Assembly: GCA_964631995.1 (NCBI GenBank)
Contig: CAZWAU010000037.1
Location: 1 to 39,905 of the forward strand
DNA: 39,905 nucleotides
DNA from: an uncultured Nitrososphaerota archaeon
GTDB lineage: Archaea; Thermoproteota; EX4484-205; DTQO01
Direction: 5' to 3'
Both the position numbers and the translations under genes were made by a program. Shown here piece by piece: positions 3,591-36,587 of this stretch; within the stretch, counting starts at the first letter, position 1; every line of letters starts with the position of its first letter. The notes under the pieces are model-generated. The model was given only the letters and a program-made list of their open reading frames with translations. It was not told where the DNA came from and did no database searches.

Positions 3591-3908
3591 GGCGGCGGGT
3601 AAGGCTGGGAGGCTTGCCCTCTCCTACGAACCTGAAACGGGCAACATGCTGGGGCCAGTAACCTGAGGAGCGCGACCAAGCGCTCCAGGGGGCCTGCCTG
3701 CCACTGGGTTGAAGTCCAGCTCTGTCGGGCGAGTGCAGGAGTAGGCGCATCTGTAGGGGTGCGCCGTATCCCTAACCGACGAATGCGCCAGGCCCGGGAG
3801 GGAGCAGCGGTAAGGCGGGCTACTTTGCGCTGGCAGAAAAACTGGGCTGACTGGCGGAGGCAGGTGCTCCTGAAGAATGCTGGCCGCCATCCGAGGGAGC
3901 CGCCGCCA
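3591..3908 (+). ncRNA. Signal recognition particle RNA (archaeal 7S/SRP RNA)
   Basis: About 318 nt and GC-rich. 5' GGCGGCGG pairs with 3' CCGCCGCC. The helix-8 motif GCCAGGCCCGGGAGGGAGCAGCGGUAAGG matches the conserved archaeal CCAGGCCCGGAAGGGAGCAACGGUAGG. ORF-track entries here (3569-3925, minus strand) have non-protein-like composition. Confidence 0.85.
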
Positions 3909-6428: not shown

Positions 6429-7601
6429 TTGCCAGAAGTTCGGGGAAGCGAAACGCTGAGAAAATACGAGGAGATAAACGAGAAGATAGGAAGGGGAGAG
6501 GCAACTGTTTTGACAGCCGAGGAGTTCGTTGCTGCTGTGGAGAGCAAGGGACTTGAGAAAGCTGCTAGGGAGGTCGATGTTGTCACAACTGGAACATTCG
6601 GTGCAATGTGCAGCAGTGGTGCGTTCTTGAACTTCGGCCACTCAGACCCTCCAATAAAGATGTGGCACTGCTGGTTGAATGATGTTCCTGCATACAAGGG
6701 GCTGGCAGCGGTCGATGCCTACATCGGGGCGACAGCAGCCAGCGAGAGCATGGGATTCGAGTATGGCGGAGGGCACGTCATAGAGGATCTGGTGTCAGGG
6801 CGCGAGATCAGGCTTCGCGCTGATGCATATGGAACCGATTGCTATCCAAGAAGGTACATAGAGACGACCTTGACTATCGAGGACCTTAACCAGGCTGTCC
6901 TACTGAATCCGAGAAATGCCTACGAACGCTATAATGCTGCGACAAACAGCACAAGCAGGACGATCTACACATACATGGGCACTTTACTGCCCAACTATGG
7001 AAATGTGACCTTCTCTGGCTCTGGCCAGCTAAGCCCTCTCCACAAGGACATGGGTTTCGAAACGATCGGAGTTGGGACAAGAATATTCCTTGGCGGTGGC
7101 ACAGGATATGTTATCGGAGAGGGGACACAACACTGCCCCCAGAAGCGGTTTGGGACGCTCATGGTCAAGGGAAATTTAAAGCAGATGAGTGGCCGTTACT
7201 TGAGGGGCGCGACCTTTCACAGGTATGGCCCAACAATGTACGTAGGCCTTGGTCTGCCGATACCGATCATAAACGAGAACGTTGCCAGAACAGCCGCACT
7301 TAGCGATTCGGAGATATTTACAGACCTGATCGATTACGGTGTTCCTTCGAGGGAAAGGCCCACTGTCAAGCAGGTTTCCTACAGGGAGCTGAAGTCTGGA
7401 AAGGTTCTCATCGGAGACGAAGAGGTGCATAGCTCGCCACTATCGAGCTTGAAGATGGCCAAAGAGGTGGCTGAAGTTCTTCGCGACATGATATTGGAGA
7501 AAAGGTTCTTCCTGAACAGGCCCGCCGAGCTTCTGCCTGCAGAGATGGAGTTCAAACCATTGCTGGAAAAAAGCCACGCAACGGTCGCGGTCGGGAGGTG
7601 A
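6429..7601 (+). CDS. Homocysteine biosynthesis enzyme, sulfur-incorporation type (COG1900/DUF39), without CBS domains
   Basis: INEKIGRGEATVLTAEEF...EVDVVTTGTFGAMCSSGAFLNFGHSDPPIKM...LNDVPAYKGLAAVDAYIGAT matches the DUF39 family (MA1821/MJ0100-like). TTG start is uncertain. Confidence 0.85.
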   Translation: MPEVRGSETLRKYEEINEKIGRGEATVLTAEEFVAAVESKGLEKAAREVDVVTTGTFGAMCSSGAFLNFGHSDPPIKMWHCWLNDVPAYKGLAAVDAYIGATAASESMGFEYGGGHVIEDLVSGREIRLRADAYGTDCYPRRYIETTLTIEDLNQAVLLNPRNAYERYNAATNSTSRTIYTYMGTLLPNYGNVTFSGSGQLSPLHKDMGFETIGVGTRIFLGGGTGYVIGEGTQHCPQKRFGTLMVKGNLKQMSGRYLRGATFHRYGPTMYVGLGLPIPIINENVARTAALSDSEIFTDLIDYGVPSRERPTVKQVSYRELKSGKVLIGDEEVHSSPLSSLKMAKEVAEVLRDMILEKRFFLNRPAELLPAEMEFKPLLEKSHATVAVGR

Positions 7602-9215: not shown

Positions 9216-11486
9216 ATGCGCGGCGAAGAGGGCTACATTTCTCACCCATTCCTAAAGCCCAAGAAGATCGAGCTGAGAGGTTACCAGAAAAAAATTGCCG
9301 AAGTTTGCCTGCATGGAAACACACTCGTCGTCCTCCCTACTGGACTCGGTAAAACGGTGGTTGCGATCCTTGTTGCTGCCGAAAGGCTCCTCCTCTTGCC
9401 AGATTCAAGGTGCCTAATCGTCGCTCCCACAAAACCACTTGCCATGCAGCATTTCGAGTCCTTTCGCTCAGTTTTCAATCTTGGGGAGAAAGATTTCGCA
9501 TTATGGACCGGTGAGGTTCCTCCAGAAAAGAGGAACCTGGGCGACGCTAGGCTCGTATTCGCAACACCGCAGGTCTTGCAGAACGATATCGTCTCTGGAA
9601 GGCTCTCTCTCGAATCTTTCAGCCTCCTTATCGTTGACGAGGCACACAGAACCGTTGGCGACTACGCTTACGTATTCTTGGTCGACAGGTACATGTCGAT
9701 GGCACGCAATCCTCTCGTCGTTGGCTTGACCGCATCTCCAGGTTCGGACGAATCTAGAATAGAAACAGTTGCAAGGAACTTAAGGGCATCTTTCATCGAG
9801 GCAAGGTCTGAGAAGAGCGAAGACGTAAAGTCGTACGTCCAGTCTGTTAAGTACGAATTCGTGCCAGTCACACTTCCAGAACCCTTGTTGGAGGCAAAGA
9901 AGCTTCTCGAAGATTTTCTGAGGGAGAAGGCAAGCAATGTTTCGAAGCTGGGATTGGCACGCTTGAAGCTGCCTCTTAACTACCGGGAGGTTTCGGCTCT
10001 TTTAGCAAGGACGGCCGAAAGCATAGGCTCTGCAGGAACCGCGAAGGACAGCAGCATCTTCGAGTGCTTGAAGGACCTTGCTTCAGCGAGGAGGATCATA
10101 CTTTCTTTAGAGAGGCTTGAAACAGAAGGTGCAGACTCCTTCCTTTCTTTAATGGAGAGGCAGCAGTCTCAGAGCATGCGCAGCGGAGCTCCCATCTCTC
10201 TGAAGAGGATATTTGCCGACAGGAGGATAAAGGACGCAATCGGCCTTTGCAGACTGGCAAAGGACGCAGGATTTACGAATCCGAAACTCGACAAGCTTAG
10301 GAAGATCGTGACCTCTTGCTTCAGCGAAGGTGCTAGGAGGGTCGTGGTATTCGTGAGCTATAGGGATTCGGCAAACGCGATCCTCAGCCTCCTCAAGGAG
10401 GCACCTCCTGCAAGACCCGTAAGACTTGTAGGCCAGGCGGACAGGGTGGGAGATGCCGGAATGTCACAGGAACAGCAGGCAAAGATCATTTCTGCTTTCA
10501 GGGCTGGCGAGTACAACACCCTGGTAGCTACGCAAGTTGGGGAAGAGGGATTGGATATCTCATCTTCGGACGTCGTGATCTTTTACGAAAATACGCCTAG
10601 TGCCATTCGATATGTCCAGAGGATCGGAAGAACGGGAAGAAGCGCCCCAGGTAAGGTCTTCATCATGTACTTCGAAGGAACAAGGGACGAGGCTTATCTC
10701 TGGATCGCAAAGAGGAGGGAGAAGGCTATGAGGTCTTTGGTCTCTAGGCTCTCCCGTTCTGGCAATAACAAATCTAGGGAGCTGAGAGAGAGCAAAGGAC
10801 AAGGGGTCCTCAGCCCCTTCCTGACCGATCAGGGAGATGAGAAAAAGATCATCGTCATTGTAGATACAAGAGAATCAGGATCTGCTGTTCTCGCTGAACT
10901 CTCAAAGCTCGGCGCCGAGGTTAAACTTCAACCGCTTGAGGTTGGCGACTATGTTTTATCGGAGCGCGTCTGTGTCGAGAGGAAGACCACAAGGGACTTC
11001 GCGATCTCGATGATGGATGGTCGCCTCTTCGAACAGGCCTCGGCACTCAAGGGATACGAAAGGCCCGTCCTGCTCCTCGAGGGTGAAGAACTGTACTGCA
11101 CGAATGTTTTGCCCCAGGCCATAGCTGGTGCCCTCGCCTCCCTGGTCGTCGATTTCGGCCTCAGCATACTTTGGTCTAAGAATGCTTCTGAGACTGCGCA
11201 ACTACTTTTTGCCATGGCTCGTAAGGAACAGTTTGATAATAAATCGATGCCTAGGGTCAGGGGGGAGAAGAAGCCCGCCTCCATACCGGAGCAACAGGTT
11301 TACCTCGTGGCTGGCCTTCCGGGCATTGAGAGGACAATGGCGAAGAAGCTGCTTGAGCATTTCAAAAGTCCAGAGAGGGTGTTCAGTGCAAGTGAGAAGG
11401 AGCTTCAAGAGGTGGATGGAATAGGGGAGGTAAAGGCGAGGAGGATCAGGGAGGTTCTGGGAGCGCGCTTTGAAGAGGAGGCTTAG
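9216..11486 (+). CDS. hef: Hef: helicase-associated endonuclease for fork-structured DNA (SF2 helicase + XPF/Mus81 nuclease + HhH2)
   Basis: PTGLGKT (motif I), VDEAHR (DEAH), QRIGRTGR (motif VI), nuclease motif GDYVLSERVCVERKTTRDF, and C-terminal HhH (GIERTMAKKLLEHF, GIGEVKARRIREV). The ATG directly follows the upstream TAG. Confidence 0.92.
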   Translation: MRGEEGYISHPFLKPKKIELRGYQKKIAEVCLHGNTLVVLPTGLGKTVVAILVAAERLLLLPDSRCLIVAPTKPLAMQHFESFRSVFNLGEKDFALWTGEVPPEKRNLGDARLVFATPQVLQNDIVSGRLSLESFSLLIVDEAHRTVGDYAYVFLVDRYMSMARNPLVVGLTASPGSDESRIETVARNLRASFIEARSEKSEDVKSYVQSVKYEFVPVTLPEPLLEAKKLLEDFLREKASNVSKLGLARLKLPLNYREVSALLARTAESIGSAGTAKDSSIFECLKDLASARRIILSLERLETEGADSFLSLMERQQSQSMRSGAPISLKRIFADRRIKDAIGLCRLAKDAGFTNPKLDKLRKIVTSCFSEGARRVVVFVSYRDSANAILSLLKEAPPARPVRLVGQADRVGDAGMSQEQQAKIISAFRAGEYNTLVATQVGEEGLDISSSDVVIFYENTPSAIRYVQRIGRTGRSAPGKVFIMYFEGTRDEAYLWIAKRREKAMRSLVSRLSRSGNNKSRELRESKGQGVLSPFLTDQGDEKKIIVIVDTRESGSAVLAELSKLGAEVKLQPLEVGDYVLSERVCVERKTTRDFAISMMDGRLFEQASALKGYERPVLLLEGEELYCTNVLPQAIAGALASLVVDFGLSILWSKNASETAQLLFAMARKEQFDNKSMPRVRGEKKPASIPEQQVYLVAGLPGIERTMAKKLLEHFKSPERVFSASEKELQEVDGIGEVKARRIREVLGARFEEEA

Positions 11487-32981: not shown

Positions 32982-33011
32982 GGTAGAAGCGCCAACTGAG
33001 TGGTCACTGGG
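32982..33011 (+). other. 5' strand of the pre-23S processing stem with BHB motif
   Basis: GGTAGAAG pairs with CTTCTACC (36580-87). Central helix is CGCC (32990-93) / GGCG (36573-76). The 5' bulge is AAC (32994-96). A ~15-bp helix follows, 32997-33011 with 36558-36572. Confidence 0.8.
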
Positions 33012-33226
33012 TGGAATACGTCCGACATGATACGCCACCTAGAGAATGGCTTGGCTCAGGCGCCGAAGAAGGGCGTGGCAAGCTGCGATAAGCCTCGGGT
33101 AGGAGCAAGTATCCTGCGATCCGAGGATCCCCGAATTGGATACCTTCCGGCGGTGCGCGCAAGCGTGCCGTTGGAACACCCGAAAGGGTGAGGTAACCCA
33201 CCGAAAGGAAACATCTGAGTAGGTGG

Positions 33227-33258
<32 letters not shown>

Positions 33259-34948
33259 ACGGCGAGTGAAAAGGGAAAAGCCCAAACCGAACCGCGCGTC
33301 GAAAGGCGCGTGGGATGTGGGGTTGAGGACCGGACCTCCTCTCTGCCTGCGAAGTCGAAGAGGCCTGGAAAGGCCCACGAAAATGGGTGATAGTCCCGTA
33401 GACGTTGGCCGGCGTGAGTTGGGTCTGAGTTCCTGAGTACTGCGCCTCGGATATGGCGCAGGAAGCTGGGAGCTATTCACTTCCAAGGCTAAATACGTCC
33501 TGAGACCGATAGCGCACCAGTACGGTGACGGAAAGCTGAAAAGAACCCCGAGAGGGGTGTGAAAAGAGCCTGAAACTAGGTGGTTACAGACGTTCACGGC
33601 CTGAAAGGGTTTGAATCCCCCAAAAGTTTCCGGTCGAGAGGCTGGAAGCGATGGGGGGCTACCAGGGTCGTGAGTTTCGTCTTGAAACACGAGCCGGGGA
33701 GTTTATGGCCGTGGCAAGCCTAAGGGGTACTATCCCCGTAAGCGTAGGGAAGCCAACTAGCCTGCAACCGCCTTAACGGCGGCGAGAGGCGGGGTAGCGA
33801 TTGCCCGTAGTCACGGCCTTAAGACTAGAAACCGAACGATCTAATCCTGGGCAGGGCGAAGCCGGGCGAAAGCTCGGTGGAGGCTCGAAGGGGTCCTGAC
33901 GTGCAATTCGGTCCTCAGACCTGGGATTAGGGGACAAAAACCAATCTAGTTCGGTGATAGCTAGTTCCTTCCGAAATGGATCTCAGTCCAGCCCGCCCGG
34001 AGGAGGTCGGCAGGGTAGAGCACTGATCGATGGGCAAGGCCTCGAAAGAGTCCACCCGTCTTTCAAACTCCGAATCTGTCGACACCGTAGATGGGCGGAG
34101 ACGGGTTCCAGGGGGTAAGCTCCTGGACCGAGAGGGGAACAACCCAGACTAGGGTTAAGGTCCCTAAATGCTGGCTAAGTGTTATTCGAAAAGGCGTCTC
34201 GACTCTCAGACAGCGGGAAGGTAGGCTTAGAAGCAGCCATCCTTTAAAGAGTGCGTAACAGCTCACCCGCCGAGAGTCAAGGCCCTGAAAATGGACGGGG
34301 CTCAAGCCAGCTGCCGATACCCTAGAGCGCAGCCTGAGGCTGCGTCTGGTAGGAAGGCGTCCGAGTTGGGCCGAAGCTGGGCCGTGAGGTCCGGTGGACC
34401 GACTTGGATTGCAGATCCCGGTGGTAGTAACAGCTAAGACAGGTGAGAATCCTGTCCGCCTGAAGGACAAGGGTTCCCCGGCAACGCGTCGTCAGCCGGG
34501 GGTTAGTCGATCCTAAGGCCTCGTTTAACATGCGAGGTCGAAAAAGGGAAGCCGGTTTACATTCCGGCACCAGGGGGGTACACGCGGTAACGCAAGCCCT
34601 CACGCTGACGCTTCGGGGCAGGTTGAGCGGGGCTGTCGCTCCGTCTAACTGTCCAAGCCTGGGAAGTACCGTAAAGGTGAGAACTAGGCGAAGGCAGGAA
34701 TGGCTTGCCGTTAGGCGAGTTCAGCTGGGCCCTGGAGCCATGGAAAAGGCGTGGGGGATGGATCCCCTCTGATCGTACCAAGATCCGACACTGGTGTTCC
34801 TGCGTGAGAAGCGCAAGGCGTCTCGGGGTATTCCACGGCGAGGGAACTTGGCAATCTAGCCCCGTAACTTAGGGATAAGGGGTGCCTGAGGCTGGGCTTC
34901 GGCTTGGTCTCAGGTCGCAGTAACTAAGGGGTCCCGACTGTTTACTAA

Positions 34949-35332
34949 ACGGGCAAAGGCACCGGCTTAATGTTCGAGATGGAAAAAAGGTAGAATTCCC
35001 CGGGGACGGAAGTTGCAAGAAAATCTGTGCCTGCTGCGTTCCAACAGACCGGACGAATTCGAAGATTTTTCAGAAATAGCAAAAAGCTCCAATGCGAGAA
35101 TAGATCGGCAGAACTTCGGATTCCTTTGGCTCAGAGATTCGTTGCGGATTTGTTTGGTGCAGAGGCACGCTGAAGATGGTGTCGTTGTAAGAATTCATAG
35201 CTTTACAGAATGCATGAAACCTGGCGCGGAGGGCTCTCGCATCTTCGCGCTCGGATTGGGTGTTGAGTTTTCCTAGAAAATCTGAGAAGTTTGTTCCGTC
35301 TCAAAGGCCAAAGGTGCGCTTGCCCGAGTAAC
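34949..35332 (+). other. 23S rRNA intron A (384 nt)
   Basis: Canonical hBHBh' motif: outer helix TGTT/AACA, central helix TACT/AGTA, bulges AAA (34947-49) and ACA (35331-33), inner helix CGGGCAA/TTGCCCG. Splicing gives GACTGTTTACTAA|AAACACAGG, the same length as the universal GACUGUUUAAUAAAAACACAGG. Confidence 0.85.
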
Positions 35333-35595
35333 AAACACAGGGAGCCGCTAGTCCGAAAGGATGTGCACGGCTCTTGAATCCTGGCCAGTGGCGGTATCTG
35401 AATCCCAGGTTCAACTGGGCCAAGGACCGCTAAACGCCCGAGGTAACTCTGACCTTGTTAAGGTAGCCAAATGCCTTGTCGGGTAAGTTCCGACGTGCTT
35501 GAATGGAGCAACGAGGGCCCCGCTGTCCCCGCCTGGATCCCGGTGAACCCACATAACGTGGCTGCACAGTCCACGATCTCCCAACGGGACAAGAA

Positions 35596-35625
35596 ATTCT
35601 CTTAGAAAACCTAGGAGAACTTGCC
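35596..35625 (+). other. 23S rRNA intron B (30 nt) between E. coli-equivalent positions 2060 and 2061
   Basis: Central helix CAAG (35590-93) / CTTG (35620-23), bulges AAA (35594-96) and CCG (35624-26), inner 9-bp hairpin TTCTCTTAG-AAAAC-CTAGGAGAA, outer helix GGA/TCC. Splicing gives AAGAA|GTCCACGTGGAGCTTTACTG, the same length as AAGAAGACCCCGUGGAGCUUUACUG. Confidence 0.8.
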
Positions 35626-36127
35626 GTCCACGTGGAGCTTTACTGCATCCTGTAGCTGGGATGTGGTCGCGGATGCAGAGTGTAGGCGGGAGCCGTTACA
35701 CTCAACCCTTCCGGGGGTTGGGAAGGCGACAATGGAACACCGCCCGTCAGTGACCTATTCTCTTACCGGGTGAAAGCCCGGGACAACTATTGGTGGGCAG
35801 TTCGGCTGGGGCGGCCCCCTCTTGAAAAGATATCGAGAGGGCCCTAAGGTCAGCTCAGACGGAACAGAAACCCGTCGTAGAGTGCAAGGGCAAAAGCTGG
35901 CCTGATTCGGTCCTGCAAAGTAGAGGACCGAAAGGCGAAAGCCTGGCCTAGCGATCCTCCATGTCCTTATGGATAGGGGCTGGAGGTGACAGAAAAGTTA
36001 CCCCGTGAGTAATTGGCTCGTCGCGGGCAATAGTTCATATTGACCCCGCGGTTTGGTACCTCGTCGTCGGCTCTTCCCATCCTGGCGGTGCATAAGCCGC
36101 CAAGGGTAGGGCTGCTCGCCCGTCAAA

Positions 36128-36223
<96 letters not shown>

Positions 36224-36557
36224 TTATCTGTTGGGAGTGCTGGTCGCTTGAGGGGAAGGTGTCCACAGTACGAGAGGAACTGGGCGCCGCGGCCTCCGGT
36301 TTACCGGTTGTCCGACAGGGCAACGCCGGGCAGCTGCGCCGTCTTCGATAAGACCTGAAAGCATCTAAGGTCGAAGCGAATCCCGAAAATAAGCGGCCAA
36401 TCCGAGAAACCATGGCAGACCTGGTAACAGGCCTGCTCTCTCGGACGAGGGCTGGGATAGTAGATCCCGTTGATAGGTGGGGGGTGTACGCGCGAAGGCT
36501 TCGGCCGACGCGTTCAGCCCGCCCATACTAATCGCCCAAGGTGTCGGGCGGAAAAAA

Positions 36558-36587
36558 CTCAGTGGCCACTCGGGCGAAACTTCTACC
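36558..36587 (+). other. 3' strand of the pre-23S processing stem with BHB motif
   Basis: Complement of 32982-33011. The 3' bulge is AAA (36577-79), between GGCG and CTTCTACC. Confidence 0.8.

Follow-up and report, generated by a model that had tools for sequence, protein, structure and literature searches.

Clade-specific substitutions behind an unchanged catalytic first shell in the 23S rRNA of an uncultured archaeal lineage

The 39,905-nt contig CAZWAU010000037.1 of an uncultured Nitrososphaerota archaeon (assembly GCA_964631995.1), analyzed here over its whole length and referred to as the window, carries a complete archaeal large-subunit (LSU) rRNA gene. The gene matches the Rfam covariance model RF02540 from end to end (model positions 1-2987 of 2987) and scores 2621 bits, where the gathering score is 50; it is approximately 550 nt longer than the model because three insertions are present; the G+C content of the rRNA is 57%. 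An initial annotation, based on a by-eye alignment after intron removal, had described a cluster of substitutions at normally universal nucleotides of the peptidyl-transferase centre (PTC). We read the states of these nucleotides twice, from an alignment of positions 35626-36135 to RF02540 and from a MAFFT alignment of the spliced RNA with E. coli rrlH, and use E. coli numbering for all rRNA positions.

Both alignments are free of gaps in the three universal strings on which the by-eye comparison had relied, and they give identical states and coordinates, which rules out misalignment. The substitutions described at 2062, 2065, 2445, 2447, 2448, 2452, 2503, 2504 and 2554 are borne out by both, coordinates included (Table 1). 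An Rfam LSU model had been proposed as a check, and in that alignment the universal bases are not recovered by a different placement of gaps. Inside the 2445-2453 strand, U2449, A2450 and A2451 are kept. Unchanged, too, are G2061, C2063, G2505, U2506, G2553, U2555, U2584-2586, A2602 and the P-loop (G2251-2253), and the sarcin-ricin string AGTACGAGAGGAAC is found in the gene, so that the first-shell nucleotides and both loops are intact as had been claimed. The A2065:U2445 pair is a true Watson-Crick compensation in helix 74, as these are paired columns in the covariance model. Every other tabulated locus has C:G here, and A:U is confined to the clade of the window (see below) among the loci compared.

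Table 1. Features of the window and variant nucleotides of its 23S rRNA. BHB, bulge-helix-bulge; arrows mark predicted cuts; L-numbers are contigs used for comparison.
Feature	Position	Strand	Remarks
Archaeal 23S (LSU) rRNA gene, three introns	33018..36551	+	Rfam RF02540 covariance model
U2062 (A2062U)	35627	+	A in bacteria and 90% of archaea; also in sister Brockarchaeota
A2065 (C2065A)	35630	+	pairs with U2445 at 36006, end of helix 74; model base pair, unflagged
Strand 2445-2453, UGAGUAAUU	36006..36014	+	G2445U 36006, G2447A 36008, A2448G 36009, C2452U 36013, U2453 36014
Tip of helix 89 (H89), G2470:C2480 to U·U	36031/36041	+	model flags pair as non-standard
U2503 and C2504 (bacteria: A, U)	36064..36065	+	both alignments
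C2554 (U2554C), A loop	36115	+	also in sister Brockarchaeota
Pre-23S processing stem, 5' strand, GGTAGAAG-CGCC-AAC-TGAGTGG	32982..33003	+	pairing read from sequence; BHB motif
Processing stem, 3' strand, CCACTCG-GGCG-AAA-CTTCTACC	36566..36587	+	BHB motif with 32982-33003
Intron 1, 384 nt, in the string GACUGUUUACUAAAAACACAG	34949..35332	+	BHB helix UACU/AGUA, bulges AA↓A and AC↓A; missing from L057
Intron 2, 30 nt, A2060/G2061	35596..35625	+	BHB helix CAAG/CUUG, bulges AA↓A and CC↓G; 9-bp hairpin; missing from L057, L031, L081, L096, L109 and L001, present only in window and L028
Intron 3, 51 nt, A2566/G2567	36128..36178	+	BHB helix GUCA/UGAC, bulges AA↓C and AA↓G; missing from L057 and L001
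Archaeal signal recognition particle (SRP) RNA	3593-3905		RF01857, 114.7 bits; sole other RNA family found in window

A metagenome scan for non-A2503 variants supplied eight further contigs, from samples other than that of the window, which were matched by the same 2445-2453 and/or 2061-2067 string (L006, L028, L031, L034, L057, L081, L096 and L109). The nine contigs are 89-99% identical and share all of the variant bases wherever the positions are covered, and the window is collinear with L028 along 4.7 kb at 96.5% identity. The recurrence of the same bases in eight contigs from different samples answers the concern about chimerism or error, and the variant states are not an assembly accident. 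L034 is chimeric outside domain V and was used for that domain only. When the consensus structure of the Rfam model was projected onto the domain V exon (510 nt) of the nine sequences, 137 model pairs resulted, 112 of them invariant and 25 variable, and 14 of the 25 had changed on both sides with pairing kept, which indicates selection on structure and not decay. Domain V retains its canonical fold, its helices being maintained by compensation. The compensated changes include the H89 stem variants CGCGGG/CCCGCG, CCUGGG/CCCAGG and CGUGCG/CGCACG. The U·U at 2470:2480 is common to all nine contigs, while sister lineages have G:C or U:A at this pair.

The initial annotation was also right to remove introns. 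Three insertions are missing from the 3,096-nt metagenome contig L057, which is 98.9% identical to the gene of the window, and each of them has a BHB motif with a 4-bp helix and two 3-nt bulges whose predicted cuts match the junctions of L057. The archaeal splicing endonuclease cuts such motifs after the second bulge nucleotide, and the junction GTCAAA-GGGGAACG in L057 (hyphen at the join) fits a cut of this kind at intron 3; the boundary of intron 1 can slide within an A run. We assigned the motifs by hand and compared them with the L057 junctions, as minimum-free-energy folds of the introns drew none of them. A further BHB motif brackets the gene, where positions 32982-33003 pair with 36566-36587 in helices of 8, 4 and 7 bp, in this order, which are separated by two 3-nt bulges. 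L057 is circularly permuted, so that sequence equivalent to 36454-36578 of the window continues directly into 32991 onwards, and its junction, ...GGGCGAA-CTGAGTGG..., joins the bulges of the processing stem after their second nucleotides, its 5' end being the third nucleotide of the AAC bulge. Circular 23S rRNA has been reported to predominate in archaeal total RNA (Shi et al. 2026, PMC12918454). Given this report and a junction that lies at endonuclease cut sites, L057, whose source strain differs from the window by 1%, looks like an RNA-derived assembly of a mature or near-mature circular, spliced 23S rRNA, an origin that we infer from the structure of the contig. The rRNA of the window thus looks, from its sequence, to be expressed and functional. 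That it is a functional rRNA and not a decaying copy had been argued in the initial annotation from the 2065-2445 pair; clade-wide conservation, the compensatory helix changes and the spliced, circular-type contig L057 bear this out, and on these grounds we rejected a pseudogene or an artefact.

Intron content varies between close relatives. At the site of intron 1 relatives have other sequences, and the sequence of L096 differs there. L028 (reverse complement) has an extra insertion of approximately 257 nt before CCUCG (approximately 2497/2498; window positions approximately 36059-36063), adjoining the variant 2503/2504. Many Nitrososphaerales 23S loci (including L139, L163, L173, L176, L180, L182, L191 and L193) have insertions of approximately 400-1000 nt directly before CGAUGUCGG (approximately 2500), with canonical active-site strings. 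We also considered whether U2062 and A2065 are tied to the adjacent 30-nt intron. This was ruled out, as the intron-less L031, L081, L096 and L109 have the same bases, and the link is further undercut by the wide occurrence of U2062 in archaea without the intron, although the outer helix of its BHB motif would include U2062 as a paired base.

The lineage was placed by its 23S rRNA and by a protein of the window. In a neighbour-joining tree of 932 columns from the 3' third of the 23S rRNA, with the variant positions masked, the nine contigs are monophyletic (100% bootstrap) and sister to Brockarchaeota metagenome-assembled genomes (MAGs; 90% bootstrap); deeper nodes are weak. The HcyBio homocysteine-biosynthesis protein encoded at 6429-7601 is 91% identical to a protein of 'Candidatus Brockarchaeota JZ-2.bins.136', with synteny in this region at 77% DNA identity across 3.1 kb, and the next-best matches are from Bathyarchaeia (69-75%). 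The closest 23S relatives available are those of the Brockarchaeota MAGs DRTY-1.bins.18 and DRTY-6.bins.80, with 76-79% identity over the domain V exon. The 2445-2453 string of the clade is in none of the GTDB species representatives, and the clade is a lineage with neither cultured members nor a 23S rRNA in reference genomes.

Comparison with the sister lineage separates older from younger changes. Sister Brockarchaeota have U2062 and C2554, together with canonical 2065:2445, 2447, 2448, 2452, 2453, 2503 and 2504. U2062 and C2554 were therefore inherited and lie outside the clade-specific burst, while the remaining changes, being canonical in the sister lineage, arose together on the stem of the clade. 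The proposed co-variation of 2062 with 2503 and of 2452 with 2504 does not hold as a general rule, since U2062 with A2503, A2062 with U or C2503, C2452 with C2504 and U2452 with U2504 all occur. Nearly all GTDB genomes with U2062 carry A2503/U2504; dozens of Bathyarchaeia-like contigs have UC, CC or CU at 2503/2504 with canonical 2062 and 2447-2453; and U2452 stands alongside U2504 in other contigs. Our samples were chosen on U2062 or on non-A2503, so these are counts of counter-examples and not association statistics, and they are numerous enough to rule out a general coupling.

How universal these positions are depends on the domain of life. In the count table of Nissley et al. (10.1101/2024.11.12.623245, Supplementary file 3), all of the bacterial columns are at least 99.9% canonical. 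Among 2,439 GTDB archaeal species in the same table, 2062 is U in 9.9%, 2503 is A in 76.9%, C in 19.6% and U in 3.4%, and C2504 occurs in 10.0%. For the archaeal rows that carry the labels 2447-2453 the table gives G, G, A, U, A, A, C, while the bacterial rows follow E. coli numbering; these archaeal rows appear to be offset by one position, which would put G2448 at approximately 18%, U2452 at approximately 15% and A2447 at approximately 3% of archaea. Nissley et al. also report U-to-C changes at 2554/2555 for Thermoprotei/Thermoproteota. In our own scan more than 120 GTDB species had U2062, among them the cultured Thermoplasmatales Acidiplasma, Oxyplasma, Thermogymnomonas and Cuniculiplasma, as well as Nitrososphaeria, Brockarchaeota, Wolframiiraptor and one korarchaeote, and many Nitrososphaeria ordinarily carry G2448. 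The description of these nucleotides as normally universal thus fits Bacteria and not Archaea. Variation in archaea is already on record for most of the variant positions; it is this combination that is new. Other loci with several of the states include L116 (U2062, G2448 and U2503), the korarchaeote L230 (Kor1; U2062, G2448, U2503 and C2504), L009 (G2448, U2452 and U2503) and the Aciduliprofundum/DHVE2 loci L142, L171 and L211 (U2062 and U2503).

Earlier work described divergent active sites in Thermoprotei and Methanomethylicia, with at most six positions changed in 2447-2453 and 2500-2504 (10.1101/2024.11.12.623245; a later version is cited in PMC12918454 as Nat Microbiol 2025;10:1940). [quoted passage not shown] The clade of the window, substituted at 2447, 2448, 2452, 2453, 2503 and 2504 relative to its sister lineage, has a divergent PTC by the same measure. 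Like those groups it belongs to the Thermoproteota/TACK archaea, has approximately six changes in the same two strands with the first shell untouched, and shares G2447A, U2504C, the A-loop U-to-C change at 2554 and rRNA introns with them. It lacks the A2453C, U2500C and C2501A of P. calidifontis (it has U2453 and keeps the canonical bases at 2500 and 2501), and it has G2448, U2452, U2453, U2503, A2065:U2445 and U2470·U2480, which are absent from the P. calidifontis set; U2555 is unchanged. The clade, known here from sequence alone, also falls outside Thermoprotei and Methanomethylicia in the 23S tree, with Brockarchaeota as its sister. Neither Brockarchaeota nor Bathyarchaeia is named in the text of 10.1101/2024.11.12.623245, and the combination found in the clade is absent from that survey because the survey used GTDB representatives, which lack the 23S rRNA of the clade.

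A partly overlapping set (A2447, U2452, U2453, U2503 and C2504) lies outside the group formed by the window clade and Brockarchaeota, in B24-type Bathyarchaeia (the MAGs LUCB01 'B24', JAWCPE01 JZ-2_201808_bins_182 and JAGTQM01 QZM_A2_bin_24), which also have the U2062 and C2554 of the clade. These Bathyarchaeia differ from the clade in G2499 and C2500 and in their canonical C2065:G2445, A2448 and G2470:C2480, and they are approximately 80% identical to it over domain V. Because they are not its sister in the masked tree, the overlap looks convergent, and the sequences suggest convergence on a coupled module of 2447/2452/2453/2503/2504.

Taken together, we consider it highly probable that the window encodes a working 23S rRNA of a clade sister to Brockarchaeota, in which the catalytic first shell is unchanged and the layer behind it has been rewired as a set, comprising 2447, 2448, 2452, 2453, 2503, 2504, the pair that closes helix 74 (2065:2445) and 2470:2480 of H89. 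As the first shell is untouched, catalysis and binding of the tRNA ends should be ordinary. By analogy with P. calidifontis, A2447 would keep its hydrogen bond to A2451 and lose a potassium site, U2452·C2504 would mirror the usual C2452·U2504 pyrimidine pair, and C2504 would take the flipped archaeal conformation, for which the shorter archaeal uL3 loop would give room. The A-to-U changes at 2062 and 2503 would remove an adenine-adenine contact used for peptide and drug sensing in bacteria and leave peptide-bond formation unharmed. Inhibitors that occupy the A-site cleft and the entrance of the tunnel (anisomycin, chloramphenicol, oxazolidinones, pleuromutilins and streptogramin A) would then bind differently or not at all, and nascent-chain sensing would change as well. 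These structural and drug consequences for the ribosome of the clade are likely, to judge from the analogy. In E. coli in vitro, 2062, 2448, 2503, 2504 and 2554 are mutationally flexible, and A2062U has 94% activity (d'Aquino et al. 2020, PMC7049736). The bases of 2062 and 2503 are important in drug-dependent nascent-chain stalling and not in bulk translation (Koch et al. 2017, PMC5499644).

Several points weigh against this reading. The ribosome of the clade is represented by nucleotide sequences only, uL3 is not encoded within the window, and one of the nine contigs, L034, is chimeric. The RNA origin of L057 rests on its structure, and the contig differs from the window over approximately 120 nt close to the 3' end. 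The reading does not account for the U·U at 2470:2480 or for a few further non-standard pairs, and, as the gene is known from contigs, the organism may carry another rrl copy that is canonical.

Which force fixed the rewired layer is a separate question. The binding pockets of chloramphenicol, linezolid, pleuromutilins and streptogramins, to which the initial annotation had pointed, are established knowledge. Resistance to anisomycin and chloramphenicol in halophilic archaea and Sulfolobus is conferred by C2452U, while A2503U and changes of A2062 give resistance to the pleuromutilin, oxazolidinone and 16-membered macrolide classes. The laboratory resistance mutations A2062U, G2447A, C2452U, A2503U and U2504C are the same single changes as in the clade; there they occur jointly as fixed states of a natural lineage and were not selected one by one as in the laboratory. 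G2447A and U2504C are among the changes that confer resistance to anisomycin, linezolid or chloramphenicol (10.1101/2024.11.12.623245), and antibiotic evasion was raised by Nissley et al. for their own lineages (10.1101/2024.11.12.623245). The set could accordingly have been selected as a block to natural PTC inhibitors of co-occurring microbes, as an intrinsic multi-drug resistance and not by drift, and its partial recurrence in B24-type Bathyarchaeia would fit repeated selection. We nevertheless regard this origin as unlikely, as every one of the states is widespread in one archaeal group or another without a known antibiotic link, the changes at 2065:2445 and 2470:2480 fall outside the drug pockets, and epistatic constraint could equally yield convergence. 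U2504C alone is deleterious in E. coli (10.1101/2024.11.12.623245). We lean towards compensated drift as the route by which the set was fixed, resistance being a by-product. An adaptation of the active site to temperature, which has been proposed for U2554C/U2555C in Thermoproteota, would fit the presence of C2554, and relatives from the protein search sit in the MAG series named JZ, DRTY and QZM, which we take from their names to be hot-spring samples; U2554C/U2555C is reported to stabilise the large subunit (Nissley et al. 2023). This explanation is quite improbable, since the clade-specific changes run mostly from G/C to A/U (C:G to A:U, G:C to U·U, G2447A and C2452U), the G+C content of the rRNA is only 57%, C2554 was inherited and U2555 is unchanged.

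Explanations that would deprive the gene of a role fare worse. The gene is isolated, with neither LSU partner, small-subunit (SSU, 16S) nor 5S rRNA, found in the window (33 kb upstream and 3 kb downstream of the 23S gene), as might be expected of a divergent second operon or a pseudogene whose canonical counterpart elsewhere does the work. Unlinked single rRNA genes are common in archaea, however, and separated arrangements have been noted (Shi et al., PMC12918454). The persistence of the variant states across contigs of 89-99% identity, the 14 compensated pairs, the intact first shell and the existence of a spliced contig of circular RNA type likewise make a second operon or pseudogene very improbable. 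An artefact of misalignment, sequencing error or chimeric assembly is vanishingly improbable given two independent alignments in agreement, eight other contigs with the same bases and the collinearity with L028, and nothing was found in its favour beyond the chimeric L034.

Reading the gene as a working 23S rRNA with a rewired second shell overturns nothing, as archaeal counts show that each position varies and the catalysis-critical bases are untouched. Solutions from two archaeal classes had been described before, and the clade adds a third, different one. Natural ribosomes whose active-site shells are altered reveal which parts of the oldest catalytic RNA can change; they also predict intrinsic insensitivity to drugs and could serve as scaffolds in ribosome engineering. 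It is possible, if somewhat doubtful, that A2447/G2448, U2452/U2453, U2503/C2504 and the A2065:U2445 buttress form an alternative stable second-shell architecture, reached independently at least two times (in the clade and, partially, in B24-type Bathyarchaeia) and unlike the Pyrobaculum solution, which would abolish the A2062-A2503 sensor and most of the drug pockets of the A-site cleft together. If so, the archaeal active site would have several discrete, epistatically locked second-shell states.

Elsewhere in the window, ARAGORN found no tRNA genes across positions 1-39905. The open reading frames at 33238-33690 and 34063-34470 (minus strand), both internal to the rRNA gene, are presumably spurious. 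Positions 9216-11486 encode a long Hef-type helicase/ERCC4 nuclease, and a search of GTDB representatives with this protein returned zero close relatives. Among the 23S loci examined, archaeal contigs also turned up in MAGs labelled as bacterial (L172, L198, L236, L237 and L246, with the labels Deltaproteobacteria, Campylobacteraceae, Acetothermia, Chthonomonas and Chloroflexi), where they are probably binning contaminants.

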